From positions 5,096 to 69,095 of the forward strand of contig CAYSIN010000001.1 of NCBI GenBank assembly GCA_964431135.1: a stretch of DNA of 64,000 nucleotides, in the 5' to 3' direction. Below the pieces are notes generated by a model. That model made no database searches. It had not been told where the DNA came from and was given only the letters and a program-made list of their open reading frames with translations. Both the position numbers and the translations under genes were made by a program. This DNA comes from an uncultured Bacteroidales bacterium. GTDB taxonomy: Bacteria; Bacteroidota; Bacteroidia; Bacteroidales; GWA2-32-17. Shown in pieces: positions 3,285 through 58,618 of the stretch. The stretch's first letter is position 1; each line of letters begins with the position of its first letter.

Positions 3285-4409
3285 TTATTTCGTATGGTCT
3301 TTTATTTTGATAAATGATTTATTGATTTCGTTCATGCGGACATAGTTTTTAAAATGTTTGCGGGTCAATTTTTCTAATTTATCCAGTTCTTCTATACTTA
3401 ATTCATCTATAAAACAGGTAGGGTCTTCGTTAAAAACATCGCCGGTATGATAATAAGCCATAACACGGCAACCGCCGCATGTCCAGTTATATTTACAGTT
3501 GCCACATTTACCCTTTAACGAAGGTCGATTAATTATTTTTTTCATTAAATCTGATTCAAATAGAATTTCTTTTAACGGTGTTTGATATACATTGCCAGCC
3601 GAGATATTATCAGAAAGCAAAGGACAAGGTGCTACATCACCTGCGGGATTGATGCCATAGAAAGAACCCACCCAGCAACCAACCGAGGGTTGAATGGGCA
3701 CTTCTGTAGAAAAAGCCTTAATCCCTGTAATTTCTTCATAATCGTTGGGATTTAGAAAAAAGGGAACAAAACTTACAAAACCATGATACGATTTCATAAG
3801 TGCCGGATGAAGATATTCTTTCAAAATCTTTTTATCAAACATCATTTCTTTATGTGTTGAATGTCGTGGCGAAAAGGGAATTCGATTGTAGGGCAAACTT
3901 TGCTGTATTATTCTTTCAATAGTATTTGAAAATGTTTGACAATTAAAACTTCCCATGGTTACAGAGATATTGGTGTTGATGCTATTTTCCAGCAACAGGT
4001 TCAACTTTTCTTCAAAAAAAGATATTTCACGATAACGAGTATCTTCATTTTCATCGTCAAACGAATTAATGCCTAACGAAATGAGTAAGTTATGCCCCAG
4101 TATTTTTTTTAATTCGGTTATTGTTTTTTGGTTGATAAGTGAACCATTGGACGAGATGCCTATTTTAAATCCCAATTTGTTTGCCCTATCCAATAACTCA
4201 AAGGCATCATTTCTTAATAAAAATTCACCACCGGAAAAATCAATAAATTCAGTACCAAGATTTCTGGCAGGGATTAAAATGTAGTTGATTAAATCAAGGG
4301 TACTTTTATCTTCTTCCCACAATGCTGGATTGTTAGAACCACTCGAGCAATGCGGACATCTGAAATTACAACGTCGTGTTGTCTCAAAATATAAAGTATG
4401 GAAAAGCAT
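3285..4409 (-). CDS. Radical SAM enzyme with C-terminal SPASM domain (peptide/protein-modifying maturase type)
   Basis: 374 aa. N-terminal CNFRCPHC (CxxxCxxC) radical-SAM cluster motif. C-terminal Cys pattern C-x16-C ... CGNCKYNWTCGGC ... DPTC fits a full SPASM twin auxiliary 4Fe-4S domain. Confidence 0.9.
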   Translation of the reverse strand: MLFHTLYFETTRRCNFRCPHCSSGSNNPALWEEDKSTLDLINYILIPARNLGTEFIDFSGGEFLLRNDAFELLDRANKLGFKIGISSNGSLINQKTITELKKILGHNLLISLGINSFDDENEDTRYREISFFEEKLNLLLENSINTNISVTMGSFNCQTFSNTIERIIQQSLPYNRIPFSPRHSTHKEMMFDKKILKEYLHPALMKSYHGFVSFVPFFLNPNDYEEITGIKAFSTEVPIQPSVGCWVGSFYGINPAGDVAPCPLLSDNISAGNVYQTPLKEILFESDLMKKIINRPSLKGKCGNCKYNWTCGGCRVMAYYHTGDVFNEDPTCFIDELSIEELDKLEKLTRKHFKNYVRMNEINKSFIKIKDHTK

Positions 4410-4483: not shown

Positions 4484-7400
4484 TTATTTTTTTATCATAT
4501 TCATATTGTATTGCTTGTTATCCAGCAAAACTTTTACAAAATAATTGCCTTTTGCTAAATGGTGCAGTGACAGGGTTTCCGATATATCTTTTTTAGTGGG
4601 TATGATACATTTGGATAGAACCTTTTGTCCTGTGCTGTTATATAGTTCAACACTTATATTTTTCAACATATATTCTGTTTGGATAGACAGTGTAAAATTA
4701 TTGTCGGTAGGATTTGGATAAAGGGCAACATGGATACCTGCTTCCATATCGGAAATAATAGAATTGGCTTGCTGAACGGTAAAACTCATAACGGTAGAAC
4801 ATCCATTACCACTGGTAACCGTAACCGTATAAGTACCTATGGGAATATTGTTTAAATCTTCGGTAGAAGCACTATTGTTCCAACTAAATATATATGGTGG
4901 AACGCCATTGGTTATGGTTATATCAATAGCACCGTCTGAAGCCGTAGCAGACGAAGCATTGGTAATGCTGGCTATTAAAGTAACCGATGCCAAAACAGTA
5001 ACAGTAATCTGTGATGTATCCGTACAACCGTTGGAACTGGTACCTGTTACTATATAAGTATTGGTTGATGGTGGTGTAAAAGCAATTCCATCCGAAACGC
5101 CATTGTTCCATTCATACGAGGAAGCACCGTTTCCAGTCAAAATTACCATATCACCTTCACAAACGGGGTTAACGCTTGCAGTAGCCGTAACGGATGGATT
5201 TGGATTGACTGTTACAGTATAAGTAAGTGTATCCTGTTGTGAACCATTGTAAGCCACCAGCGTTACATTGCATGAACCCGTTGTATTAAATGTTACGGTT
5301 GGACTGGCTTGTGTGCTGGAAGTAGGCGAACCACCAGAAAAAGTCCAAGCATACGAAGTTGCATTGGTACTTGTATTGGTAAAGGTTATCGATTGTCCTT
5401 GACAAACAGAACTGCTCGAAACGGTAAAGTTTGCAGTGGGAGCATCACTCGAAGTAATTGTTGCTACAACGGGAACTCGTGCACTGGTACAAGGGTCTTG
5501 CTGTACTTGCCAATTATAAAAATAATAGTAATAATTGGTTGCACCTGCTGCCGTATTTCCTGTTATGGAAATCAGATCGGTCACAGTATAGGGATAATTA
5601 GCACCTGCATTATCTCTCCATAAATTATTTTGCCCATAAGTACCCAAAACATATCCTGTACCTGCGGGAACATGGAAATTTAGCGTTACGGTTTGTGTAC
5701 CACTTGGAATATTAACAACTAACGAATCTATAACCATACCATTACTGTTTTGAAGCCAAATAGTTCTGGATGCGGTAGAATTGGAATATACTTTTACCGA
5801 TTTAATAGTAAGGTCGGCTAATACGTCAAAAATAAGACCAAAATTTCCATTATAATTTGTTCCATAATAGTATCCACCGGTTGATGTTTTATTGATAAGT
5901 CCGGCAGCATGAACAGTATGTATTATGTCATTTTCAACATAATACGTTGTAGTTTGCGAGAGCACAGGTGTTGTATAAGATGTTCCCGTTGCAATGGGTG
6001 TTCCTCCTGTTGCAGTAGTGTACCATACAAGTGTGTCACTGCTACTTGCGGTAAGGGTAACACTGCATGGTCCAACACAAGAACCTCCTGTTGCAGTAGG
6101 ACTTGTTGGCAAGTTAATGGTAACATAACTTGTTTTAGTCATGATATTATCTCCAAAACTGTTAGTTGCTTTTAGCGAAACGGTATATGTTCCGCTGGTG
6201 GTATAGGTATGCGTAGGATATTGCAATGTGGAGGTTGTTCCATCACCGAAATTCCAAAGCCATGAAGTGGGTTCGTTGGTAGAATTGTCCATAAATTGAA
6301 TTATTCCCGTACAACTGGAAGTTGTATTGCTACAAAAATTGGCAACAGGTGGTACATCATGTGGTGTACCTCCCTTATAAACAATATAGTTTGCCAATCC
6401 CCCAATCAGGTCACTGCCATAAGAAATATACATGTATCCGTTTATTCCCCAAGTTGAGCCCCATGAATTTCTCATTATCCAATATCCACCACCGTCAATA
6501 GTGGCACTATCGCACCACCCAACCAACACTACGGCATGATTCAGTTCGCTTCCTGTTTCAGTAAAAATGCCACCTGTATAATTTGAAAATGCAGTACTGC
6601 CCGCATCTATAGTAACCCATATTGGACCGTAATCATAAATAGCCTGTTTCATATTGTCATCGGGAGGAATGTAATTTTGGTCTTGCCCTGGTACATCTGC
6701 ATAACTGTCAATGGTTTCGTGAGGAGGATAGCCCGAAGTATTGCAGGTGCCTGTATTTCCTGTACTGTTACATGTTGTAGGACAGTCTGTTTCATATACA
6801 GCACCACCACCTAATGGATTGGCTCCTGTATAAGAGGCTATCCATGCCTGATGAGCACACCATCCACCGTCACAACCGTAGCAATCCTCAGTGTAACAAT
6901 CGGTAACAAACTCTTCGGAAATAGTTTTTGTAACGCCATCTCTAATTTTAATATTGCATTCCAATGTGGCAACAGATGCATACGCCCAGCAATCACCGCA
7001 ATACATTTGATTTTTTATGGGAGTGCAATGTGGACGCCAATCCCAACTGGAAGGAACAGATTTGGTTGTAGAAGTAACATGTTTGGGCAATTCTTTTTTC
7101 TGCGGAAGATAATTGCCTGTGTATTTACCACTGGATATAACCGTTATGGAATAAGTTTGTATGGGTATCGCATTCTTTTCCCAAGGACGTCTTAATTCAA
7201 GGTTTAATGTAGTAGTACCTACCGATGTTCCTTTGTAATGAATAATCTGAATACCTGATTGCCCTACACGATGTTTTCCATTTTTGGAATCTATGAAGTT
7301 ATCGGCAATAAACAAATCATCTCCCACATTTTCAATAGAACGTTGTATGGATTTATCCATTGCATTGGGTGATTCACACCAAATATATCCCGTAGAAGAT

Positions 7401-9311: not shown

Positions 9312-9381
9312 TAATACCAAACCGCTAACCAAAGCACACTAACAAAATTCATTTCATTTTTTTGTTAGCGGTTTGGTATTA
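9312..9381. mobile_element. MITE-like element with perfect 18-bp terminal inverted repeats
   Basis: TAATACCAAACCGCTAAC (9312-9329) and its exact reverse complement GTTAGCGGTTTGGTATTA (9364-9381). The 66-bp core is flanked by TA on both sides. The interior is related to copies at 32251-32270 and 46809-46828. Confidence 0.55.
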
Positions 9382-9522
9382 TATGAAGAAGTGGCTGCAT
9401 GGTGAGATTGCTTCGCTACGCTCGCAATGACGAGATGGGGCGAATAGTTACAAATAAGTTTTTAAGGGATGACTAGTTATTTGTCCCCCAAATAATAAAG
9501 GTAAATAAATTCCATTTGGTAT

Positions 9523-12346: not shown

Positions 12347-15300
12347 ATGAAAAAATATTTATTTTCTATTGTACTGATATTCAGTATGTTAAATTTTTAT
12401 GGACAAGCATACCTTATCAGTTCAGGAGGAACTGTTTCTACCTGTTCGGGTTATTTTTACGATAGCGGTGGTAGCGGAGGTACATACCAGAACGATGAAA
12501 ACTATACCATGACGATATGCTCAAGTAATGGTGGGCACATTGTTGCTACATTTACTGCTTTCAATACAGAAGCAAGTTATGATTATTTATATATATATAA
12601 TGGACCGAATACAGGCAGTCCATTAATAGGTTCTTATAACGGCACTACATCACCTGGCACTATTACTTCCAGTGGAACCTGTCTTACTTTTGTGTTTACT
12701 TCTGATGTTAGTGTAATGTATGATGGATGGGCTGCAACATTATCTTGTACCACACCAGTTGCTCCAAATACACAGGATTGTGCAGGGGCAATACCATTAT
12801 GCTTTTCTACTTATTCCACTACTGCTTCTTATTCTGGTCAGGGAAATTTCCCAACTGAAATTCCAACACATTTACCATATTCAGACGACATGTGTCCCGG
12901 CAATTGTTTACTGGCAGGAGAACTTAACGATGTTTGGTACACATTTACCGTTCAAACTTCTGGAACACTTACATTTCAGATTACTCCCAATAGTAGCGGT
13001 GATGATTATGATTGGGCGGTATATAATTTAACCAATGCCGAATGTGCAGATATTTATTCGAACCCAAGTTTGCAGGTAAGTTGTAATTTTTGCGGTGTAC
13101 CAGGAGCGACAGGTCCTACCGGTGGAGGTTCTTCTTCGTGTATGTATGGCGACCCGGCTTATTGTACAACTTACAATTCTGCTATTAGTGTAACTGCTGG
13201 ACAAACATACGTGGTTAATGTAAGTAATTTCAGTTCAACACAAAATGGATATAGTATTACTTTTGGAGGTACGGCTCAAGTAGTGGACAATACAGGTCCA
13301 TATTTGTACAATGTTGTTCAATCGCCGGCATGTGGACAAAATCAGGTTATCATTCGTTTCAGTGAAAATGTGTCATGCACTACGGTGCAGGCATCCGATT
13401 TTACTATCAGCGGTCCAGGTGGACCCTATACCGTTACATCTGTGAGTGGTGCTATTTGTGCTGCTGGGGGCAGTTACGAAAGAGATTATGTATTAACAGT
13501 AAGCCCTGCTTTTGTACAAGGAGGAACCTATACTATTAGTTTAGTAAGTAATTCTGTTTCTGATATATGTTCACATCCAACCGGTGGGCAAAATTTGACC
13601 TTCAGCGTTACCGGTGTAACTGCTTCGGCTTCGGTAGTAAGTAATGTTTCATGTTATGGTGGAAATAATGGCTCTGCAACGGCAAGCGGTTCAGGCGGCA
13701 CTTCTCCATATTCTTACTCATGGAGCAATGGTTCTACGTTGGCAAATCCAACCGGTTTGGCTGCAGGAACTTATACCGTTACGGTAAGAGATGCCAATGG
13801 CGTTTGTAATGCAACGGCACAAATCACAATAACACAACCTACAATACTTGCCGCTACCATTAGTTCTTCACCTGTTTTATGTAATGGTGGAAGTACCGGT
13901 TCTGCAAGCGTAAGTCCTTCTGGCGGAACGTCTCCTTATTCATATTTATGGAGTAACAGTTCCACCGCATCTTCTATTTCCGGTTTATCACAAGGAACTT
14001 ATTCTGTTACAATAACTGATAATAAGGGTTGCACTTTGGTAAAAAGTACCACAGTATCTCAACCAACAGCGTTATCTGTTTCAACATCTCAGACAAATGT
14101 GAGTTGCAATGGAGGGAATAACGGCAGTGCAACTGTTTCGGTAAGTGGAGGCACTCCCTTATATTCATACACATGGAGTAACGGTCAATCAACAGCAACA
14201 GCATCAGGTTTAACGTCGGGCACATACACCGTTACAATTCGTGATGCCAATAGTTGTTCAACAACGCGTACTTTCACTATTACACAGCCCGCTACTTTGA
14301 CTTCTTCCATTGCCTCGCAAACAAATGTTTCCTGTTTTGGTGGCTCAACAGGCTCTGCAACAGTAACACAAAGCGGTGGCACTTCTCCTTATAATTATAC
14401 ATGGTCCAATAGTCAAACCACACAAACTGCTACAGGATTAACAGCCGGTACTTATACTGTTACTGTTAGAGATGCCAATAATTGTACTTCTATTTCGTTG
14501 GTAACAATCTCGCAACCAACTGCGGTGAGTGTTGGCATTTCGGGTTCAAATGTAACCTGTAACGGTAGCAGTACAGGAAGCGCTACTGCAAATCCTACTG
14601 GTGGAACGCCAACCTATACCTATTTATGGTCCAACAGTCAAACATCGCAAACCATTTCGGGACTTGCTGCCGGTACTTATACGGTTACAGTCCATGATAT
14701 CAATAATTGTTCGGCTGTAAACAGCATAACCATAACACAACCATCAACATTAACTTCTTCCATTTCATCACAAACAAATGTAAGTTGTAACGGTGGCAAT
14801 AATGGAACGGCAACCGTAACAGGAAGTGGTGGTACACCTTCTTATACTTACACCTGGTCTAATAGTCAAACATCACAAACAGCCACAGGATTGTCTTCGG
14901 GAACTTACTATGTTACTGTAAAGGACACTCATAATTGTACTTCGGTATCGTCTGTTACCATTACGCAACCCGCAGCACTGTCCGTAAGCATGACAAAGAC
15001 TAATGTTGCTTGTAATGGTGGAAGTACAGGCAGTGCAACAGCAACACCAACAGGCGGAACACCGGGCTATTCTTATCAATGGACTGGTGGACAAACAACA
15101 CAAACTATTTCAGGATTGTCAGCAGGAACTTATTATGTTACGGTGAGAGATGCCAACAATTGTTCACAAGTAAATTCTATTTCCATAACACAGCCAACTG
15201 CTGTAAGTGCCAGCATTTCATCTTCCACTAATGTAAGTTGTAATGGCGGTAATAATGGAACGGCAACAGTAAATGCAACAGGTGGTACACCGTCCTATAC

Positions 15301-18300
15301 TTATAATTGGTCAAACAGTCAAACTACGGCTACTGCTACTAGTCTGGCAGCAGGAACATATAATGTAACCGTATATGATGCGAACAATTGCACTTCTACT
15401 ACTTCAGTAAGTATTACCCAACCGGCTGTTTTAAATGCAACGTTATCTTCTACTAATACCAGTTGCTATGGTGGTTCAAATGGAAGTGCCACAGCAACAC
15501 CCACAGGAGGTACCGGCCCTTATACTTATTTATGGGTTCCTGGCGGACAAACAGGTTCAACAGCAACGAATTTAAGTGCAGGTACCTATAATGTAACTAT
15601 TACTGATATTAAAGGATGTACAAAAACAGGCTCTGTAACGGTATCACAACCAGCATCTCTGACACTTACTATGAGCAAAACAGATGCTACTTGTGGTAAC
15701 AGTAACGGAAGTGCTTCTGTTTCGGTAAGTGGAGGGACACCTTCTTATTCATATTTATGGTCTAACAGTGCTACTACAATTTCTATAACCAATGTACCTG
15801 CTGGTACTTATTCAGTAACCGTAACTGACAGTCATAGTTGTACCAATGTAAATAACGTGGCAGTAAATAATTCCGGTGCTCCGGTTGTAACCGTAAATTC
15901 AGTTACAAATGTTACTTGTAACGGTGGCTCAACTGGTGGAGCCAGTATTTCTGCCAGTGGTGGAACACCATCTTATTCGTATCACTGGTCTAATGGTGCA
16001 ACAACAACATCCATATCTAATGTAGCAGCAGGAACTTATTCTATTACTGTAACCGATGCATTGACATGTATAGGTACGGCTTCAGTAACTATTACTCAAC
16101 CGTCAGCAGTAGTAGCAACTATTACAAGTAATATCAGTCCATTGTGCAATGGTGCTTCCAATGGAAGTGCTACGGTAAGCGCTTCCGGTGGAACACCCGG
16201 ATATAATTATCAATGGTCTAATGGACAAACAACTGTAACTGCTATAAATTTGGCAGCGGGCACATACAGTGTTACAGTTAAGGATACCCATAATTGTACA
16301 ACAACAACTTCCGTAACTGTCACTCAACCAACTGTTGTTACCTCATCCATCACTTCATCATCCAATGTTAGTTGCAATGGAGGTGCTAATGGTAGTGCAA
16401 CTGCTTCTGGAAGTGGTGGTACACCTGGTTATACCTATGGATGGTCCAGCGGCGCTAGTTCGGCTACAGCATCGGGATTAAGTGCAGGCACTTATTATGT
16501 TACTGTAAAAGATGTCAACAATTGTTCTTCAATATCTTCTGTAACTATATCGCAACCTGCGGCACTAACTTCCACTTTCAACACAACCAACGTAAATTGC
16601 AATGGTGGTTCGAATGGCTCATTAACTGTTAATCCAACAGGTGGGACATCACCTTATACCTATTCGTGGTCAAACAGTCAAACAACACAAACCATTAACG
16701 GACTGATAGCAGGTACATATTCTGTTACCATTACTGATAGTCATAGTTGTACCATGGTCAACAGTGCAACTGTTACTCAACCCACCACGTTAACTTCTTC
16801 CATTACTGCTCAAACCAACGTATCATGTAATGGCGGAAACAATGGAAGTGCTACGGTAACAGCCACGGGAGGAACAACAAATTATTCCTATCTATGGTCT
16901 AACAGTGCAACTACAAGTTCTATAACGAATGTTACTGCTGGTACTTATTCTGTGACGGTAACCGATGCGCACTTGTGCACCAATACTTCTTCGGTTACTA
17001 TTACACAGCCATCAGTAATTACTGCAACAACGTCTGGAACAAGTGTTCTTTGCAACGGTGGAAATACAGGAACGGCTTCTGTTGCTGCCAGTGGAGGAAC
17101 ACCGGGATATACCTATCTTTGGTCAACTACTGCAACCACTTCATCCATTAGTGGATTAGCGGCAGGTACTTATTCCGTCACCATTCGCGATGCTAACAAT
17201 TGTTCCAAAATTGCAACCTATACCGTAACTCAACCTGCTGTATTAACTGCTACCATATCATCATCAACACAAGTTTCATGTTATGGAGGAAACAATGGTG
17301 CAGCAACAGTTAGTGTATCAGGTGGAACTACAGCATATTCATATTTATGGTCATCGGGACAAACAACGGCTATGGTTAATGGATTGGTTGCCGGAACCTA
17401 TACCGTAACAGTTAGAGATGCCAACAATTGTTCTACAACGGCTAATGTTACCATCAATCAACCAACTCAACTTATATCTACCATGGGAATTCCTACTAAT
17501 GTTTCGTGTAATGGTGGAAATAACGGAACTGTTACTGTTACAGCATCAGGAGGAAGCCCAACGTATTCGTACCTTTGGTCGAATGGGCAAACTGCAGCAA
17601 CAGCCTCCAATTTAACTGCAAATTCGTATTCAGTCACCATAACCGATTCTCATAGTTGCACTTCAACGGCAAGTGTTACCATAACGCAACCGGCTGTTTT
17701 AACTTCCAGTATTTCTGCTTCAAACCAAGTAACATGCTTTGGAACAGCAACAGGTTCTGCAACTGTAACACAAAGCGGTGGCACATCACCTTATTCTTAC
17801 TTATGGTCAAATAGTCAAACGACTCAAACAGCGACGGGCTTAACAGCGGGAAATTATACAGTAACCATTACTGATAATAAAGGCTGTACAACCACAAGTT
17901 CTGTTACAATAACACAACCGTCGGCACTCTCTGCCAGCATTAATTCTTCCACAAATGTATTGTGTAATGGTGGGAACAATGGTTCTGCATCGGTTAGTGT
18001 TACAGGAGGAACACCTGCGTATGTTTACAGTTGGACTACAGGGCAATCAAGTTCATCTATTACGGGGCTTACTGCCGGGAACTATACGGTAACAGTTACA
18101 GATAATAACAGTTGTACAAGTATTGCCAATGTAACCATTACTCAACCTACTGTTATTTCAATAACTATGAATTCTGTTAATGTATCCTGCCATGGTGGAA
18201 ACAATGGTTCTGCAACAGCATCGGTTTCTGGTGGTACACCTGCATATACATATATCTGGTTGCCTGGTGGAGCGGTTACATCATCTATTAACGGACTTTC

Positions 18301-21300
18301 TGCAGGGACTTATACTGTAACGGTAACTGATGATAATGGCTGTACAAAGGCTTCCGTTGTAAATATTACTGAACCTACTGCCATGACGGTTAATCCAACC
18401 GTTGCGGATGCTACTTGTGGCAATTCAAATGGAACAGCAAGCGTTACAGTTAGCGGCGGAGTTAATCCTTATTCTTATCACTGGTCAACGGGCGCAACTA
18501 CCGCATCTATTTCAGGTATTCCCGCAGGAAATTATGGCATTACTGTGAGCGATGCCAATAGTTGCAGTACCATATCTACTGTTTCCATTAATAATACAGG
18601 TGCACCTACCATTACGGTAGATAATGTAACACCTGTTGTTTGCTTTGGTGGCAGTAGTGGTTCCATATCCATTTCTGTTACAGGCGGAAGTCCAAGTTAT
18701 ACTTACAGTTGGTCTAATGGCGCAGATAGCACTTATTTGACTGGACTTACAGCAAACAATTACTCCGTCACAGTAACCGACAGTATAGGATGTCAGGCAA
18801 CGCAAAATATTACGATAACTCAACCAACGGCCATCAATGCTTCTATTATATCCGTACTGCCTCCATCATGCTATGGTTATTCTAATGGTTCTGCTTCGGC
18901 AGTAGCATCAGGTGGAACACCTTCTTATTTTTATTCGTGGTCAAATGGTGCCAATACGGCTAATGTTAATAATTTATCAGCAGGAAACTACACCGTAACT
19001 GTTACCGATTCACATGGTTGTACGACAACCGCTTCTACCAGTGTTTCTCAACCAGCAGGTATGTCTGCCATGTTGGTTTCTCAAACGAATGTTTCCTGTC
19101 ATGGAGGTAACGATGGTGCTGCTACCATTTCCGTTTCGGGTGGTACATCACCTTATACCTATTCATGGAATAATGGTTCTACATCAGCGTCTATTAGCAA
19201 TTTGATAGCAGGCAGTTATACGGTTACCATTACGGATAATAATATGTGTACGATTTCTTCCGGTGCTTCTATTATTGAACCACAAGCCATCAACATTAAT
19301 GTACCTATTTTAAATAATGTTACCTGTAATGGTTTAAGTAATGGTGCGGCATCTGTTAATGTTACAGGTGGAACCTTGCCTTATGGATATCAGTGGTCAA
19401 ACGGTTCAACTATAAATAGTATTACCAATGTGCCTGCTGGTACTTATGATTTAACTGTAACCGATGGACATTTATGTACATCAACTACCCAAATTACCAT
19501 AACAGAACCATCATCTATAATGTCCACTGTTACGCAAACAGCATCGATTAGTTGCTTTGGCGGTAATAATGGTGCAGCAACGGTCAGTGCATCAGGTGGA
19601 ATAAACCCTTATGGTTACCACTGGTCAACCAATCAAAGTACGCCAACCATTTCCAATTTAAGTGCAGGAACCTATTTCATTACGGTTAACGATTTGAACG
19701 GTTGTACCAAAGTGGACAGTATTGTTATCGTTCAGCCCACTGAAATCGTATTATCCTTTGCCGATGATTCGGTACTTTGTTATGGTGCAGTCAATGGAAA
19801 TATTGATTTGACTGTTAACGGTGGTACACCTTCTTATACATATCTTTGGAGCAATAATCAATTAAGTGAAGATATAACAGGTTTGGCGGCAGGCACTTAT
19901 ACTGTTACGGTTCACGATGCTAATCATTGTCCTATGATATCTTCTACAACTATTTATGAACCTCCAGTTTTGACCAATACCTTCAACATGATAAATTCAC
20001 ATTGCAATCTGTCAGATGGAAGTTTGCAAACCAGCGTTTCAGGCGGTGTTGGTCCTTATACTTATTTATGGGATGCACAAGCCAATGGACAAACAACATC
20101 TACTGCCATTAATTTAAGTGCTGGCACTTATTCTGTTTCGGTACACGATAGTCATGGCTGCCTGTCTGTATTTACAGGCAGTGTGTCGGATATTAATGCA
20201 CCACAACTTTCATTTAATATTGTGCAATTACCTAATTGTAATGGCGATTCTACCGGTAAAGTTTATTCAACGGTGCAAGGTGGTACTAATCCTGTTTCAC
20301 TATTATGGTCAAATGGAGTTACCGCTGATTCTATTGTGAATGTACCTGCTGGTATTTATTATTTAACGGCAACCGATGGTGCAGGTTGTATTACAATTGA
20401 TTCTGTTACAGTTACGCAACCCAATGTGTTGGCATTTAATATTGATGATGTTGTTTCACCAAGTTGTTTTGGACTTACCAATGGTTCTATTCATCTGCAT
20501 GCTGAAGGAGGTACTTTACCATATACTTATACATGGCAGGATGACCAGGGAACATCTCTTGGCAACAATTCATCCATAACAAATGTTGGCGTTGGCAATT
20601 ATTTTGTTACTGTAGTCGATTCGCATGGTTGTAGCACAATGTTAAATCTTAGTTTATCGCAGCCATCCTTATTAGTTGCAGATACGATAAGTCATATCTC
20701 TCCACTGTGTGCCAACAGCAATGATGGAATGGCTAATGTACAGGTTTCTGGTGGTACTACTCCTTATACTTATATTTGGAATGATGCTTTGCATACGCAA
20801 AATGATACATTAAGTAATGTAGATGGGAATCATTTCTATTATGTAACTGTAACTGATGCCAATGGCTGTACCATTATTGATTCAGTCTATATTACTGCAC
20901 CTGCTCCAGTCAATGCTATTGCTTCAGGATTTTCAGCCAATTGTAATTCACAAAATGGCTGGGCATACGTTCAGGCAAGTGGTGGAACATTACCTTATAC
21001 CTATTTATGGTCCACAGGTGCAAATACTGATACGGTACAAGGTTTATCCAGCGGAAATTATCATGTAACTGTTTACGACAGTCATGCATGCTCTGCAATT
21101 CAAACGGTTCAAATTACCAATCTGCCGGCTGGCAATATTGTAGTTGATTCTATTCAGGATGTTTCATGTTATGGTGAATCATCAGGCAATATTAGTATAA
21201 GCGTGAATGGTGGCACAGCACCTTATTCATATTTATGGAGTAATGGGAGTACTTCATCCTCTTTATCAGGTGTGGTTGCCGGACAATACTCTGTAACCGT

Positions 21301-22303
21301 TACCGATGTTAACCATTGTACAGACGATACTGTTTTGCAAATCACACAACCTCCGATATTGCTTGTGGATGCTGCTGTTCAAAATATTACATGTAATGGA
21401 TTGCAAAATGGCAGTATTGTATTGACCGTAAATGGCGGTGTAAGTCCTTTCAGTTATATATGGAATACAGGTTTTTTAACACCTTCCATTAACAATTTGA
21501 CAGCAGGAACTTATACGGTTACGATTACCGATTCTCATCATTGCACGGTCATTTATCAGCATAACATTACAGAACCTGCACCGTTGCAGGTAAATACTTC
21601 AGGTACAAATCCGTTGTGCTATAATGGCAACGATGGTGCTATACATGCTACTCTCATAGGCGGAACACCACCGTATTCGTATGCATGGTCAACGGGAGAG
21701 ACGACTCAAGACATTCAAGGATTGACGGCAGGTTCTTATCAGGTTACCATAACCGACAGCAATCTCTGTGTTGTTACAGCCGTAGCGATTATTGCCAATC
21801 CTCTACCCATGCAAACCACGGCAACACAAAGTCAAGACCCTGTCAACAATTTAGGGAATGTGCAATTAACTACTATTGGTGGCACCCTGCCTTATTCCTA
21901 TTCATGGTCTAATGGTGCACAATCAAGCAACGTTAGCGATTTGGTTGCCGGTACTTACTATGTAACCATTTCGGATGCCAATAACTGCATGATGATTGAC
22001 ACCTTTATTGTTGACATACAACTCGTTATTCCATCAGTTATAACACCTAATGAAGATGGGAAAAATGATGCATTTGAAATATTAGGTATTGGCGGATATA
22101 ACCAAGTTGATATTGAAATATACAATCGCTGGGGCGATTTATTGTTTAGTTATTCCGGTTCTGGTATGGACTATACCGATGTTACGAAACAATGGGATGG
22201 CAAATTCAACGGAAAAAAATTACCCATGGGACCTTACTTGTATGTTATTAAAATAAGTGATATTAAAGACCCTATTACAGGTACCATTACCATAAAATAT
22301 TAA
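12347..22303 (+). CDS. Giant SprB-repeat cell-surface adhesin-like protein with T9SS type-B (gliding-motility-associated) C-terminal domain
   Basis: 3318 aa with a signal peptide. CUB-like N-terminal domain (YFYDSGGSGGTYQNDENY...YLYIYNG...DGWAATLSC). 37 consecutive ~76-aa SprB repeats (C.GG.NGSA....GGT.PY.Y.WSNG.T......L.AGTY.VTV.D...C). C-terminus IPSVITPNEDGKNDAFEI...IYNRWGDLLF...WDGKFNGKKLPMGPYLYVIK matches the type-B sorting domain pattern. Confidence 0.92.
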   Translation: MKKYLFSIVLIFSMLNFYGQAYLISSGGTVSTCSGYFYDSGGSGGTYQNDENYTMTICSSNGGHIVATFTAFNTEASYDYLYIYNGPNTGSPLIGSYNGTTSPGTITSSGTCLTFVFTSDVSVMYDGWAATLSCTTPVAPNTQDCAGAIPLCFSTYSTTASYSGQGNFPTEIPTHLPYSDDMCPGNCLLAGELNDVWYTFTVQTSGTLTFQITPNSSGDDYDWAVYNLTNAECADIYSNPSLQVSCNFCGVPGATGPTGGGSSSCMYGDPAYCTTYNSAISVTAGQTYVVNVSNFSSTQNGYSITFGGTAQVVDNTGPYLYNVVQSPACGQNQVIIRFSENVSCTTVQASDFTISGPGGPYTVTSVSGAICAAGGSYERDYVLTVSPAFVQGGTYTISLVSNSVSDICSHPTGGQNLTFSVTGVTASASVVSNVSCYGGNNGSATASGSGGTSPYSYSWSNGSTLANPTGLAAGTYTVTVRDANGVCNATAQITITQPTILAATISSSPVLCNGGSTGSASVSPSGGTSPYSYLWSNSSTASSISGLSQGTYSVTITDNKGCTLVKSTTVSQPTALSVSTSQTNVSCNGGNNGSATVSVSGGTPLYSYTWSNGQSTATASGLTSGTYTVTIRDANSCSTTRTFTITQPATLTSSIASQTNVSCFGGSTGSATVTQSGGTSPYNYTWSNSQTTQTATGLTAGTYTVTVRDANNCTSISLVTISQPTAVSVGISGSNVTCNGSSTGSATANPTGGTPTYTYLWSNSQTSQTISGLAAGTYTVTVHDINNCSAVNSITITQPSTLTSSISSQTNVSCNGGNNGTATVTGSGGTPSYTYTWSNSQTSQTATGLSSGTYYVTVKDTHNCTSVSSVTITQPAALSVSMTKTNVACNGGSTGSATATPTGGTPGYSYQWTGGQTTQTISGLSAGTYYVTVRDANNCSQVNSISITQPTAVSASISSSTNVSCNGGNNGTATVNATGGTPSYTYNWSNSQTTATATSLAAGTYNVTVYDANNCTSTTSVSITQPAVLNATLSSTNTSCYGGSNGSATATPTGGTGPYTYLWVPGGQTGSTATNLSAGTYNVTITDIKGCTKTGSVTVSQPASLTLTMSKTDATCGNSNGSASVSVSGGTPSYSYLWSNSATTISITNVPAGTYSVTVTDSHSCTNVNNVAVNNSGAPVVTVNSVTNVTCNGGSTGGASISASGGTPSYSYHWSNGATTTSISNVAAGTYSITVTDALTCIGTASVTITQPSAVVATITSNISPLCNGASNGSATVSASGGTPGYNYQWSNGQTTVTAINLAAGTYSVTVKDTHNCTTTTSVTVTQPTVVTSSITSSSNVSCNGGANGSATASGSGGTPGYTYGWSSGASSATASGLSAGTYYVTVKDVNNCSSISSVTISQPAALTSTFNTTNVNCNGGSNGSLTVNPTGGTSPYTYSWSNSQTTQTINGLIAGTYSVTITDSHSCTMVNSATVTQPTTLTSSITAQTNVSCNGGNNGSATVTATGGTTNYSYLWSNSATTSSITNVTAGTYSVTVTDAHLCTNTSSVTITQPSVITATTSGTSVLCNGGNTGTASVAASGGTPGYTYLWSTTATTSSISGLAAGTYSVTIRDANNCSKIATYTVTQPAVLTATISSSTQVSCYGGNNGAATVSVSGGTTAYSYLWSSGQTTAMVNGLVAGTYTVTVRDANNCSTTANVTINQPTQLISTMGIPTNVSCNGGNNGTVTVTASGGSPTYSYLWSNGQTAATASNLTANSYSVTITDSHSCTSTASVTITQPAVLTSSISASNQVTCFGTATGSATVTQSGGTSPYSYLWSNSQTTQTATGLTAGNYTVTITDNKGCTTTSSVTITQPSALSASINSSTNVLCNGGNNGSASVSVTGGTPAYVYSWTTGQSSSSITGLTAGNYTVTVTDNNSCTSIANVTITQPTVISITMNSVNVSCHGGNNGSATASVSGGTPAYTYIWLPGGAVTSSINGLSAGTYTVTVTDDNGCTKASVVNITEPTAMTVNPTVADATCGNSNGTASVTVSGGVNPYSYHWSTGATTASISGIPAGNYGITVSDANSCSTISTVSINNTGAPTITVDNVTPVVCFGGSSGSISISVTGGSPSYTYSWSNGADSTYLTGLTANNYSVTVTDSIGCQATQNITITQPTAINASIISVLPPSCYGYSNGSASAVASGGTPSYFYSWSNGANTANVNNLSAGNYTVTVTDSHGCTTTASTSVSQPAGMSAMLVSQTNVSCHGGNDGAATISVSGGTSPYTYSWNNGSTSASISNLIAGSYTVTITDNNMCTISSGASIIEPQAININVPILNNVTCNGLSNGAASVNVTGGTLPYGYQWSNGSTINSITNVPAGTYDLTVTDGHLCTSTTQITITEPSSIMSTVTQTASISCFGGNNGAATVSASGGINPYGYHWSTNQSTPTISNLSAGTYFITVNDLNGCTKVDSIVIVQPTEIVLSFADDSVLCYGAVNGNIDLTVNGGTPSYTYLWSNNQLSEDITGLAAGTYTVTVHDANHCPMISSTTIYEPPVLTNTFNMINSHCNLSDGSLQTSVSGGVGPYTYLWDAQANGQTTSTAINLSAGTYSVSVHDSHGCLSVFTGSVSDINAPQLSFNIVQLPNCNGDSTGKVYSTVQGGTNPVSLLWSNGVTADSIVNVPAGIYYLTATDGAGCITIDSVTVTQPNVLAFNIDDVVSPSCFGLTNGSIHLHAEGGTLPYTYTWQDDQGTSLGNNSSITNVGVGNYFVTVVDSHGCSTMLNLSLSQPSLLVADTISHISPLCANSNDGMANVQVSGGTTPYTYIWNDALHTQNDTLSNVDGNHFYYVTVTDANGCTIIDSVYITAPAPVNAIASGFSANCNSQNGWAYVQASGGTLPYTYLWSTGANTDTVQGLSSGNYHVTVYDSHACSAIQTVQITNLPAGNIVVDSIQDVSCYGESSGNISISVNGGTAPYSYLWSNGSTSSSLSGVVAGQYSVTVTDVNHCTDDTVLQITQPPILLVDAAVQNITCNGLQNGSIVLTVNGGVSPFSYIWNTGFLTPSINNLTAGTYTVTITDSHHCTVIYQHNITEPAPLQVNTSGTNPLCYNGNDGAIHATLIGGTPPYSYAWSTGETTQDIQGLTAGSYQVTITDSNLCVVTAVAIIANPLPMQTTATQSQDPVNNLGNVQLTTIGGTLPYSYSWSNGAQSSNVSDLVAGTYYVTISDANNCMMIDTFIVDIQLVIPSVITPNEDGKNDAFEILGIGGYNQVDIEIYNRWGDLLFSYSGSGMDYTDVTKQWDGKFNGKKLPMGPYLYVIKISDIKDPITGTITIKY
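13620..22020 (+). repeat. Tandem array of 37 SprB-repeat coding units (~225-230 bp each)
   Basis: Counted from the protein by the recurrent PY.Y.W ... AGTY.VTV.D..C signature. Units are diverged at synonymous sites, so this is not a recent amplification. Confidence 0.9.
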
Positions 22304-29940: not shown

Positions 29941-30132
29941 CATCTCGTTAAAAAAACTCATTGAGGAATTTGATGAGATTTTCTTTGCGTTTTGCGTTTG
30001 CGAACTTAGCGGTTATATAAAAACATTATCTTTAAGTACTTTTTTTACATTATTTTTTTACTTTTACAACAAATTTTGAAAGTGAAAAAATATTTTCTTT
30101 TTATAGGTTTTATCTTGTTAGCAAGTCGGTAT
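29941..30132. repeat. Intergenic repeat island (degenerate modules)
   Basis: Degenerate hairpin module CATCTCGTTAAAAAAACTCATTGAGGAATTTGATGAGAT (29941-29979). TCTTTGCGT-rich module (29981-30016, related to 58484-58524). Solo terminus GTTAGCAAGTCGGTAT (30117-30132). Confidence 0.4.
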
Positions 30133-32234: not shown

Positions 32235-32487
32235 ATACCAGACCGCTAACAAAAGAATGAAATGAATTTTGTCCCGTCAAAAACTCTTGTTAGAGTTTGA
32301 CGGGATGCCGACAGACTAACCGTTTAACCCCGACTTAGATAAAGTTATATTTTTAGAGCAAAGAGAATAAAAATATTACCTTATCTTTGTCGCCTATGTA
32401 ATTCATGAAACTAAGTTTTATGAATTATTCGGGTTTAAAACAAAAGCGAAGCGAATTGTTTTAATGAACTGGTTAGCAATTCGGTAT
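32235..32487. repeat. Composite intergenic repeat island between convergent genes
   Basis: Terminus + interior ATACCAGACCGCTAACAAAAGAATGAAATGAATTTT (32235-32270). Hairpin module + GCCGACAGACTAACCGTTT (32271-32325). 110-bp insert (32326-32435). AAAACAAAAGCGAAGCGAATTGTTTTAATGAACTGGTTAGCAATTCGGTAT (32436-32487). Confidence 0.65.
32326..32435. mobile_element. 110-bp insertion with inverted ends nested in the composite repeat
   Basis: Absent from the otherwise collinear copy at 37322-37426. Ends AACCCCGA... / ...TTCGGGTT. Internal hairpin 32400-32426. TATCTTTG box 32382-32389. Confidence 0.45.
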
Positions 32488-37321: not shown

Positions 37322-37528
37322 ATCTCGTCAAACACAAAAAAGAGTTTGACGAGATGCCGACAGATTAACCGTTTTAAAACAAAAGCGAAGCGAATGGTTT
37401 TAATGAACTTGATAGCAAGTTGGTATTATCAAATTATATTAGGTATAAACCGAATTGAAATGCTTTACCAATTAAACATTTTTGAATGCATATCGGTATA
37501 AATTATTTTTTTGTTAGCGGTTTGGTAT
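37322..37528. repeat. Composite intergenic repeat island
   Basis: 12-bp perfect hairpin ATCTCGTCAAAC/GTTTGACGAGAT + GCCGACAGATTAACCGTTTT (37322-37375), fused to AAAACAAAAGCGAAGCGAATGGTTTTAATGAACTTGATAGCAAGTTGGTAT (37376-37426, followed by TA). Solo terminus GTTAGCGGTTTGGTAT (37513-37528). Confidence 0.65.
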
Positions 37529-40920: not shown

Positions 40921-40956
40921 AAAAAAAAGAGGCGAGCAAAAATTGAGCGCTCGGCG
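40921..40956 (-). terminator. Candidate intrinsic terminator for the ECF operon (minus strand)
   Basis: Minus-strand read: GCCGAGC (40949-40955), 11-nt loop, GCTCGCC (40931-40937; 7-bp stem with 1 mismatch), then TCTTTTTTTT (40921-40930). Confidence 0.45.
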
Positions 40957-41129
40957 AAGTTTTGCGTGTAGGCAAGTGTAGTAGCTAACTCGTCGGACTT
41001 AAAAGTTAGTTTTCAAACTAAGCAAAAAATAGCGTATAGTTGTGCAAACCAAAAATGATGACAACAGGTTATGCCATTTTTTTGAAATAATAAATTACGA
41101 CGAAGTCTGCCTGTACTCATCACGTGTGG

Positions 41130-46581: not shown

Positions 46582-46956
46582 ATTCGGTTTTGTTTTAATG
46601 AACTTGTTAGCAAGTCGGTATAATTACTATTTTGTAATGAGTAAAGTGAACTGCGTGAGGAACATCCCCCTTAATTCCCCCTTCAACGGGGGAGGTGTTG
46701 AGCAATAGTCCATTCCCCAAATTCCTCCCCCTTTGAAGGGGGTTTGGGGGATGTCCTATCCCATTGCACACTTCCCTATTCTTCCACACATAATACCAAA
46801 CCGCTAACAAAAGAATGAAATGAATTTCGTTGGTTTGGTTTATGCCGAATGCGAAGCACTTCGGCATCGGATTGGGTTAATGTTAATTATCACATTTACA
46901 CAACTTGTCTCGGCATCCCGTCAGAATGACGGGATGACAAGATTTTTACATTTTCT
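46582..46956. repeat. Intergenic repeat island with four different modules
   Basis: Partial MITE-like copy ending GTTAGCAAGTCGGTAT (46582-46621). 98-bp GC-rich nested palindrome (46659-46756). TA-flanked copy ATACCAAACCGCTAAC...GGTTTGGTTTA (46793-46841). 8-bp hairpin ATGCCGAA/TTCGGCAT (46842-46867). 58-bp GC hairpin module (46899-46956). Confidence 0.7.
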
Positions 46957-58136: not shown

Positions 58137-58618
58137 CATCAAACTCTGATAAGAGTTTTGAAAGGGCTATACAAGAAAATATAGAGGTTTTAAGGATAAT
58201 GAAGCAATGGAACATGGTTAATAGATACGTCATTTATACTAACCCGCTAACAAAAGCGAAGCGAATTGTTTTAATGAACTGGTTAGCAAGTCGATATTAT
58301 ATAGCAAAATTAAAATATCAAATTTAAAATATCAAATTTAAAATTTAAAAAAATAGCACACAGATTACACAGATGTAATGGATTAAAACTGATAAATAAA
58401 TATTTACAAACCTACTTCATCATTCTCACAACTTGTCTCGGCATCCCGTCAGAATGACGGGATGACAAGATTTTCACATTTTCTTTTGCGATCTTTGCGT
58501 AATATCTTTGCGTTCTTGGCGGTTTATCAGAATTCAAATTTCAGAATTAAAATTTAATACCAAACCGCTAACAAAAGCGAAGCGAATTGTTTTAATGAAC
58601 TGGTTAGCAAGTCGGTAT
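58137..58618. repeat. Largest intergenic repeat island (619-bp spacer)
   Basis: Degenerate hairpin module (58137-58165). 62-bp MITE-like copy A (58236-58297). AT-rich 14-bp tandem AAATATCAAATTTA x2 (58312-58340). CACAGATTACACAGAT (58358-58373). 58-bp GC hairpin module (58427-58484). TCTTTGCGT-rich module (58484-58524). 62-bp MITE-like copy B (58557-58618). Confidence 0.7.

Follow-up and report, generated by a model that had tools for sequence, protein, structure and literature searches.

What are the short inverted repeats that recur in the intergenic spacers of this DNA, where do they end, and which target do they enter? In the initial annotation of the window, by which is meant the whole 64-kb stretch analyzed here, the repeats were described as a MITE-like family of 62–66 bp whose TA flanks are the target signature of IS630/Tc1-mariner elements. 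The results below support a dispersed, TIR-bounded, noncoding MITE-like family, and insertion was shown directly. The window has a G+C content of 31–43% and encodes a T9SS-sorted protein (Por_Secre_tail) and a giant repeat ORF, and is therefore Bacteroidota-like. The related loci used for comparison are metagenome and MAG contigs totaling about 1.2 Mb, with the locus labels L001 and so on.

Copies of the Family in the 64-kb Window

The window was scanned with the terminus ATACCAAACCGCTAAC and its inverted partner. Nine matches were obtained at three or fewer mismatches against 0.50 expected, and none of 100 shuffles of the window reached nine. Eight of the nine are in spacers, at the coordinates of the initial annotation, and all of the family copies listed there are present. 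The ninth, at 21932–21947 with three mismatches, is a chance match. It is the sole in-gene near-match to the terminus and falls within a giant ORF of 3318 aa (12347–22303) that contains tandem repeats of about 75 aa (225/228 bp) with 60–83% DNA identity. The statement that all six spacers longer than 300 bp contain the repeats is approximate, since two of these spacers measure about 280 bp when delimited by ORFs of at least 100 aa. The 248-bp spacer at 40.9 kb is without the family but contains an empty target site. No match was obtained for the window with Rfam at the gathering score or with ARAGORN.

Flanks are given below as the two bases to the left and the two bases to the right of an element, separated by dots. 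The copy at 9314–9379 (minus strand) is a solo A unit of 66 bp with perfect 16-bp inverted termini, ATACCAAACCGCTAAC and GTTAGCGGTTTGGTAT; the arms extend to 18 bp when the flanking TA is counted, as originally reported. The calculated fold has an energy of −25.3 kcal/mol (z −8.1). The flanks are TA..TA and are unmatched, the triplets being TAA (left) and TTA (right). A cut-down B tail at 30110–30132 (plus strand) has the outer end GTTAGCAAGTCGGTAT followed by CA (a TCA site). The complete A→B element at 32235–32487 (plus strand) is 253 bp in length with mismatched flanks of TG..AA. It consists of an A head (32235–32272), a CGTC-type hairpin (32273–32304), a B inner end that overlaps this hairpin by one base (32304–32319), a nested 111-bp passenger (32325–32435), and a B tail (32436–32487). 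The element at 37323–37426 (plus strand) is truncated at the 5′ end and contains a CGTC-type hairpin (37323–37354) and a 73-bp B unit (37354–37426), with a one-base overlap, followed by TA. A lone A head at 37477–37528 (minus strand) has the variant interior AAAAAAATAATTTATACCGATATGCATTC, which is also present in L050, L055, L085, and L090, and AA follows its outer end on the plus strand. A second cut-down B tail is at 46589–46621 (plus strand), where the outer end GTTAGCAAGTCGGTAT is followed by AA. The A unit at 46793–46842 (plus strand) is preceded by TA and has a degenerate right arm of the internal type, GTTGGTTTGGTTTA.

Two 62-bp deletion derivatives, in which the A terminus is joined to the B interior and tail, are located at 58236–58297 and 58557–58618 (plus strand). 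As had been described, they are in direct orientation, 321 bp apart, and identical at 59 of 62 positions (three differences). The flanks of the first are TT..TA, a matching TTA duplication, and those of the second are TA..TA, which are mismatched. Both copies have a weak fold. The third copy of this derivative is at 5099–5160 of L108. The window copies are minority forms of the family, namely a solo A unit, the 62-bp derivatives, the 253-bp composite, and otherwise truncated units.

Structure and Size Classes of the Element

In the related contigs the standard element is 127 bp long and consists of two joined hairpin units, A and B. The order of the segments is ATACCAAACCGCTAAC-AAAAGAATGAAATGAATTTTGT-TAGTTGGCTTTGGTTA-ATGCCGACAGACTAAC-AGTTTTAAAACAAAAGCGAAGCGAATTGTTTTAATGAACTT-GTTAGCAAGTCGGTAT. 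The length is exactly 127 bp in 29 of 89 complete elements (range 52–311 bp, mode 127 bp), and there is no ORF inside any of these. This A+B unit replaces the 62–66-bp copies as the full form of the family. The two interchangeable interiors of the initial annotation are real; they are the A-half and B-half interiors of one 127-bp element.

The termini are 16-nt inverted repeats with the conserved boxes (A)TACC and GCTAAC, and the five bases between the boxes (RA plus three variable positions) are less conserved. The 16-nt arms are perfect in solo A units and match at 11 of 16 positions in A+B units, where the outer ends are conserved and the inner ends vary freely. In the 129- and 150-bp classes the inner A arm is replaced by CGTC-type hairpins. 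The 62-bp derivative, present at three loci, corresponds to the 127-bp unit minus the 65 bp between two AACAAAAG microhomologies. In the two-hairpin consensus fold, 97.8% of cells are paired. Three compensatory pairs were detected against 0–1 in slid controls, all of them from one split of two lineages, which hints at selection on the single-stranded hairpin structure.

The composite with the 111-bp passenger was found at three loci (32235–32487 of the window, L139, and L063). The flanks are different in each case and the composite always ends at the A and B termini; these termini therefore define the mobile unit. The passenger itself has the short inverted ends AACCCCGA and TCGGGTT, and contains the Bacteroidota-type TAnnTTTG-like motif TACCTTATCTTTG. 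An extra 49-bp palindrome (CCTGCAT..ATGCAGG) is present in L063 between TTAACC direct repeats. A literature search with the terminus sequence returned no paper, and the family is apparently undescribed.

Flanking Bases and Target Site

The flanking bases were tabulated for 291 ends. Of these, 279 have T at −2 (96%; 96–98% across the end sets). The base at −1 is A in 141 (48%), T in 112 (38%), G in 20 (7%), and C in 18 (6%). The same pattern, a constant T at −2 and a variable base at −1, is found among the ends with unique flanks. In the complete elements the base N at −1 is identical to that at +1 in 54 of 89 cases (61%), against 39% expected (z 4.3). For the standard copies of 127–130 bp, N matches on both sides in 32 of 42 (p 3.8e-6). 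Copies of irregular length show no such agreement (22 of 47 match) and have an excess of TAA...TTA. When G or C is present at either flank, 7 of 13 elements match (TCA...TCA and TGA...TGA).

Because the same N is found on both sides, G and C included, the target is TNA and not TA. The element starts with A and ends with T, and the product of insertion reads TNA-TACC...GGTA-TNA. The target is duplicated as 3 bp, formally 1–3 bp since the end bases of the element overlap the target. The TA flanks are the subset with N = A or T; TAATACC and GGTATTA are mutually reverse-complementary, and these positions therefore looked like a TIR plus a target site duplication. The earlier statement that most ends abut TA is weakly true, with TA at 7 of the 13 outer ends in the window, where T at −2 or A at +2 is found in 13 of 13. 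The tabulation of flanks, proposed in the initial annotation to detect TA duplication, yielded pairs of TTA, TAA, TGA, and TCA rather than strict TA.

Three other schemes for the flanks were rejected. A 2-bp TA duplication would require the ends to shift by one base per copy and leaves the TCA and TGA pairs unexplained. Splitting of a TA with carried-over flank bases does not agree with an empty site of T-T-A rather than T-A. Fixed asymmetric ends (TT on the left, TA on the right) are incompatible with the presence of both classes in the same A→B orientation. Repair of an N·N mismatch within the hairpin was considered as the cause of the TAA...TTA excess and was rejected with zero complementary cases for G/C. 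The recurrent junction with a remnant of an ssn-like gene, described below, accounts for this excess in part only.

Empty and Filled Target Sites

Insertion is directly shown by two paralogous pairs of empty and filled sites, and TTA is duplicated in both. The first pair is located in a multicopy ssn-like gene of about 90 aa. Five copies of the gene read AAAGAT-TTA-TATGAAG, and the filled sites in L043 and L102 read AAAGAT-TTA-[element]-TTA-TATGAAG. The second pair is located in a 175-bp repeat module at 40949–41119 of the window. This module is empty at 41001–41014 (plus strand), where the sequence is AAAAG-TTA-GTTTTC, and in L105. The paralogous module in L148 contains a 127-bp element with TTA on each side. 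The copy in the window is 97% identical to that in L105 (reverse complement of 2154–2324), and the repeat is possibly a further mobile module or a small RNA. L010 and L017 were compared as a candidate orthologous empty site and rejected, as the flanks are not alignable.

The origin of unmatched flanks is apparent at several loci. In L078 the 5′ start of an ssn gene, an element, and the 3′ end of an ssn gene follow in succession. This arrangement implies two insertion sites with loss of the intervening DNA, and is thus a source of unmatched flanks. In at least 20 loci the TTA of the first pair marks the junction between an element and a 3′ remnant of the ssn-like gene, and 9380–9451 of the window is one of these. 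This junction explains the TAA/TTA flanks of the copy at 9314–9379: the DNA on the right is an ssn-cassette remnant whereas that on the left is unique, and a single target therefore did not supply both.

Distribution beyond the Window

When one genome per species was scanned with ATACCAAACCGCTAACNAAA, at least 26 loci were identified. Among these matches, 12 and 8 loci are in two MAGs labeled Hyphomicrobiales (28–36% G+C). Others are in MAGs labeled Vicingus, Chitinophagaceae, and Bacteroidales, and in Bacteroidetes GWA2_31_9. One match in Ruminococcus looks like chance. In Vicingus and GWA2 the element is the 127-bp unit, and in the CAZCHH and CAZCLJ MAGs between one and three GTCATTCYGA...TCRGAATGAC hairpins are found within the same ends. 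The latter loci (L003–L027, from CAZCHH01 and CAZCLJ01), in which these termini surround Ssn-type hairpins, are labeled as uncultured Hyphomicrobiales, an assignment that seems questionable. No synteny with the window was found in the MAG loci, where only the element aligns, save for a 212-bp stretch at 71% in L007. The S8 peptidase beside the copy in L064 was considered as a sign of synteny and rejected as only a 25% paralogue of the one in the window.

The exact 20-mer is present in at least 113 metagenome stretches, nearly all of them from the JGI metagenome Ga0302253. This metagenome has every repeat module of the window at 83–98% identity and nothing else in common. By the shared repeats alone, Ga0302253 was treated as putatively the same or a sister genome. 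In alignments of the related loci the coverage drops sharply at the termini, and the flanks are unrelated from copy to copy. These unrelated flanks, the lack of an Rfam match, and the empty and filled sites bear out the proposal of a dispersed MITE-like family rather than a syntenic RNA gene. Of 273 ends in the related contigs, 266 (97%) are not in an ORF of 120 aa or more, and the lone in-gene near-match in the window is the chance match noted above. Among convergent spacers 41% contain an element, compared with 34% of the divergent and 11% of the tandem spacers.

Thirteen matches to the terminal 16-mer in viral contigs were rejected as chance; all of them are located in coding or high-GC sequence and are not accompanied by the family interior. 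The plasmid collection contains no match to the 127-bp or the 66-bp element. In look-ups of exact proteins for strain variants, the only contigs recovered were Logan contigs that end at the repeats, and one of the proteins had no record. Logan contigs L001 and L154 (SRR8476420), from a short-read assembly of this organism, end to either side of the 58-kb repeat spacer (58.1–58.7 kb), as a high-copy repeat would lead one to expect.

Neighboring Ssn-like Cassettes and Other Repeat Modules

The multicopy gene of about 90 aa encodes a single-domain GIY-YIG protein (PF01541, E 5.8e-13) and is flanked in inverted orientation by the hairpins CGTCATTGCGAG...GAAGCAATCTC. NTS/SRM motifs and ssnA genes were described by Chenal et al. 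2025, who proposed that NTS-ssnA-NTS is IS-like (PMC11893778). Judged from sequence, the GIY-YIG gene and its hairpins match this pattern and would be Ssn-like. Copies of the gene were found at 2749–3018 of L111 and 6387–6650 of L066, together with about nine partial copies elsewhere. The cassettes have inverted ends of about 48 nt, GTAACTATTCACCCC..CGTCATTGCGAG..GAAGCAATCTC. A/B insertions interrupt most copies of the gene, and in at least 20 loci no more than the last 76 nt is left. The arrangement looks like an IS-like proliferation of the NTS-ssn-NTS cassette, as hypothesized by Chenal et al. 2025. The ssn cassette remnant in the window, a neighbor that is not part of the family, is located at 9382–9451 (plus strand) and consists of the last eight codons (LYEEVAAW and stop), a hairpin, and the cassette end GAATAGTTAC. 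The Ssn-related hairpin downstream of the remnant (9404–9434; reverse complement CGTCATTGCGAGCGTAGCGAAGCAATCTC) fits the pattern CGTCATT-stem-loop-stem-AATC.

The core of a CGTC-type hairpin module, also a neighbor, is located at 46917–46933 (minus strand; reverse complement CCCGTCATTCTGACGGG) in the repeat at 46893–46956. The same core is found at 58445–58461 (minus strand) in the repeat at 58421–58484, inside the 321-bp mosaic. On sequence grounds, the 58-kb mosaic and the hairpins at 32.3, 37.3, and 46.9 kb appear to be CGTC-type modules that resemble SRMs. The termini and interiors of the A/B family are without the SRM pattern, which is present in the neighboring modules. The two 62-bp copies had been described as bracketing the mosaic; they are two separate insertions next to Ssn-type hairpin modules, and no such composite recurs elsewhere.

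Remnants of RAYT-like genes were also observed. A frameshifted RAYT-like pseudogene (IS200-type tyrosine transposase) is at 487–726 of L112 (minus strand), with its 3′ end 58 bp from a 127-bp element on one side only. C-terminal RAYT remnants of 40 aa are present at about 12731–12844 of L095, and at about 3746–3874 and 7420–7533 of L151. Each of these 40-aa remnants is followed by a CCTCGTTRCAAACRAGGACGAG hairpin, and the same hairpin is found as an interior variant after an A head. No RAYT flanked on both sides by A/B units was seen in the related loci.

Other repeats were also noted in the spacers. A module of about 150 bp at about 46640–46790 of the window contains the G+C-rich hairpins CCCCCTTCAACGGGGGAGG and CCTCCCCCTTTGAAGGGGG, and about 5–9 copies are present in the related loci. 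An AT-rich module that starts with TATATAGCAAAATTAAAATATCAAATTT abuts the outer ends of A/B elements at 58298–58360 and 58525–58556, and likewise in L105, L125, and L153, with about 20–25 copies in the loci. TTTGCG-rich stretches ending in ..GCGGTT are found in two spacers of the window, at 29985–30015 and 58487–58525.

Proposed Mechanism and Search for the Enzyme

The repeats are best explained as a nonautonomous DNA transposon (MITE) family with a 127-bp A+B unit that is inserted at TNA by a trans-acting protein, and a probability of about 75% is assigned to this explanation. A protein supplied in trans would bind to the outer ends and bring about insertion of the element at T-N-A, and the triplet is left on both sides. 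Anything located between the ends travels as well, including Ssn-type hairpins and the 111-bp passenger. Internal deletions give rise to the 52-, 62-, and 66-bp forms, and deletions between neighboring copies yield copies with unmatched flanks. For a 3-bp TNA duplication the best analogy is a DDE transposase of the IS5/PIF-Harbinger type, which would be the presumed class of the enzyme. A plain DDE mechanism acting on double strands would, however, have no need of the single-stranded structure hinted at by the three compensatory pairs.

No transposase was found between or beside the termini in the window and the 1.2 Mb of related loci. All terminus pairs separated by 0.6–3.5 kb were inspected and none is a full-length element; the ORFs checked are ordinary genes (for example, MORN, KdsB, ThiL, YqeY, and PSP1). 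Ten ORFs between termini were read by eye, and seven of these, together with the ThiL of L064, were scanned with Pfam. Clustering of the ORFs in the 1.2 Mb revealed no multicopy ORF save orthologues between related MAGs (a TrkA gene). Queries with E. coli IS5, IS30, IS1, and rve gave no match, where IS5 InsH was compared by phmmer with 2008 ORFs; a RayT query gave the one pseudogene beside an element in L112. The termini do not resemble the ends that we take to be typical of the IS5 and IS630 families.

The TA flanks raise the alternative of a TA-specific MITE that is mobilized by an IS630/Tc1-mariner transposase and duplicates TA. TA..TA is the second commonest flank pair (21 of 89), and this agrees with the TA dinucleotides at the outer ends in the window. 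However, A is found at −1 in only 48% of the ends while T is found at −2 in 96%, and the pairs TT..TA, TA..AA, TC..CA, and TG..GA are incompatible with TA duplication at fixed ends. Both verified insertions duplicated TTA, many of the TA..TA pairs come from the ssn-remnant junction, and the deletion route is seen in L078. No IS630-like gene was seen in the sequence examined, and this alternative is very improbable. It is equally improbable that the units are primarily host elements (structured RNAs, terminators or processing sites, or protein-binding sites) with spread as a secondary property. The conserved two-hairpin fold with its compensatory pairs and an exact 16-mer common to MAGs with different labels are in its favor, but the 16-mer was also the search query, which accounts for part of this sharing. 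There is no Rfam match at the gathering score or at E values up to 1, neither synteny nor orientation with respect to genes is fixed, and all spacer types are occupied. The hairpins are not followed by a T-run, the 58-kb spacer has a single terminator-like site, a weak stem of 5 bp, and truncated, deleted, and interrupted copies are common.

A further alternative is a REPIN/BIME-like or SRM-linked hairpin element that is moved via single-stranded DNA by a RAYT or by the GIY-YIG Ssn nuclease. Each unit is a long imperfect hairpin with the compensatory pairs noted above, one strand is favored by G-T pairs, and CGTC-type hairpins are inside many copies. The RAYT-like pseudogene 58 bp from the element in L112, the C-terminal remnants in L095 and L151, and the multicopy Ssn-like cassettes interleaved with the elements point in the same direction, as do the lack of a DDE transposase in the window and the related loci and the proposed IS-like nature of NTS-ssnA-NTS (Chenal 2025, PMC11893778). 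Against this, the termini are without GTAG/CGTC heads and the CGTCATT..AATC pattern, and the identity of the duplicated base depends on the site, matched G and C included. Such a duplication is not expected for HUH single-strand insertion (IS200/IS605). The 111-bp passenger disrupts the fold and the composite is still copied, the left terminus is constant while the right terminus varies without compensation, and the RAYT remnants in Ga0302253 are followed by a different hairpin, CCTCGTTRCAAACRAGG. Movement via single-stranded DNA is unlikely on this evidence. It is likewise unlikely that the mover is an Ssn-type GIY-YIG nuclease, a RAYT, or a conserved Bacteroidota host protein instead of a classical DDE transposase, with the element as a vehicle that spreads Ssn target hairpins. 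If true, a TIR/TSD-type element would be tied to a single-stranded-DNA nuclease system. To our knowledge, no biological role of the Ssn system is known outside Neisseria.

Comparison with Known Elements

The TNA duplication is shared with known insertion sequences. A 3-bp TNA duplication is characteristic of the IS1031 group. Tourist-type MITEs of PIF/Harbinger, together with the prokaryotic IS5 family (IS1031/ISL2 groups), likewise provide short, noncoding, TIR-bounded elements with 3-bp duplications of T-W/N-A. The family described here differs as a fused two-hairpin dimer with a duplication of formally 1–3 bp and with no transposase found in the sequences searched. Its termini, TACCAAACCGCTAAC, are unlike the GAG/GGC-type ends that we presume for IS5. 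Canonical Harbinger elements have 3-bp TSDs and are related to IS5 (PMC12730594). The likeness to PIF/Harbinger/IS5 is an analogy and does not denote membership.

The Correia (CREE/NEMIS) elements and NIMEs of Neisseria are, like this family, intergenic TIR elements of 100–155 bp. Both the Correia elements and the family described here have size classes that arise by internal deletion and no known transposase. Correia elements duplicate TA, whereas this family duplicates TNA, its termini are unrelated, and the host phylum is different. Correia elements also sit among dRS3/NTS hairpins, which are now known as Ssn targets (PMC11893778). RUP (related to IS630-Spn1) and other IS630-derived MITEs are similar in size, in TIRs, and in AT-rich targets, but the TA duplication that defines them is not found in this family, and no matching IS630-like element was found.

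The BOX elements of Streptococcus pneumoniae have the same modular build, with end modules around a variable number of hairpins; the likeness is clearest in the CAZCHH and CAZCLJ MAGs, where one to three hairpins are enclosed. The sequences are unrelated, however, the inner modules here are Ssn-type hairpins that are also free-standing, and a target duplication can be demonstrated. REP/REPIN-RAYT elements and BIMEs are likewise hairpin-forming extragenic repeats in mosaics, and RAYT-like remnants are present in the same contigs. In contrast to these, the termini of this family read ATACC...GCTAAC with no GTAG/CGTC head, the duplicated base depends on the site, and passengers are carried. The hairpins beside or inside many copies fit the CGTCATT-stem-loop-stem-AATC pattern of the SRM/NTS motifs with ssnA cassettes (PMC11893778). 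The A/B family is distinct from these motifs; it has frequently inserted into DNA with SRMs and also transports such DNA.

Conclusions

The consensus, termini, target, derivatives, and proof of insertion are provided here for an abundant repeat family of uncultured Bacteroidota, and the TA/IS630 reading is corrected to TNA. The family breaks short-read assemblies and is usable for repeat masking, strain typing, and the tracing of rearrangements. In this genome the Ssn-type GIY-YIG cassettes and their hairpins are multicopy and have been hit repeatedly by the element, and they constitute a natural system for testing the IS-like behavior of the NTS-ssn-NTS units of Chenal et al.
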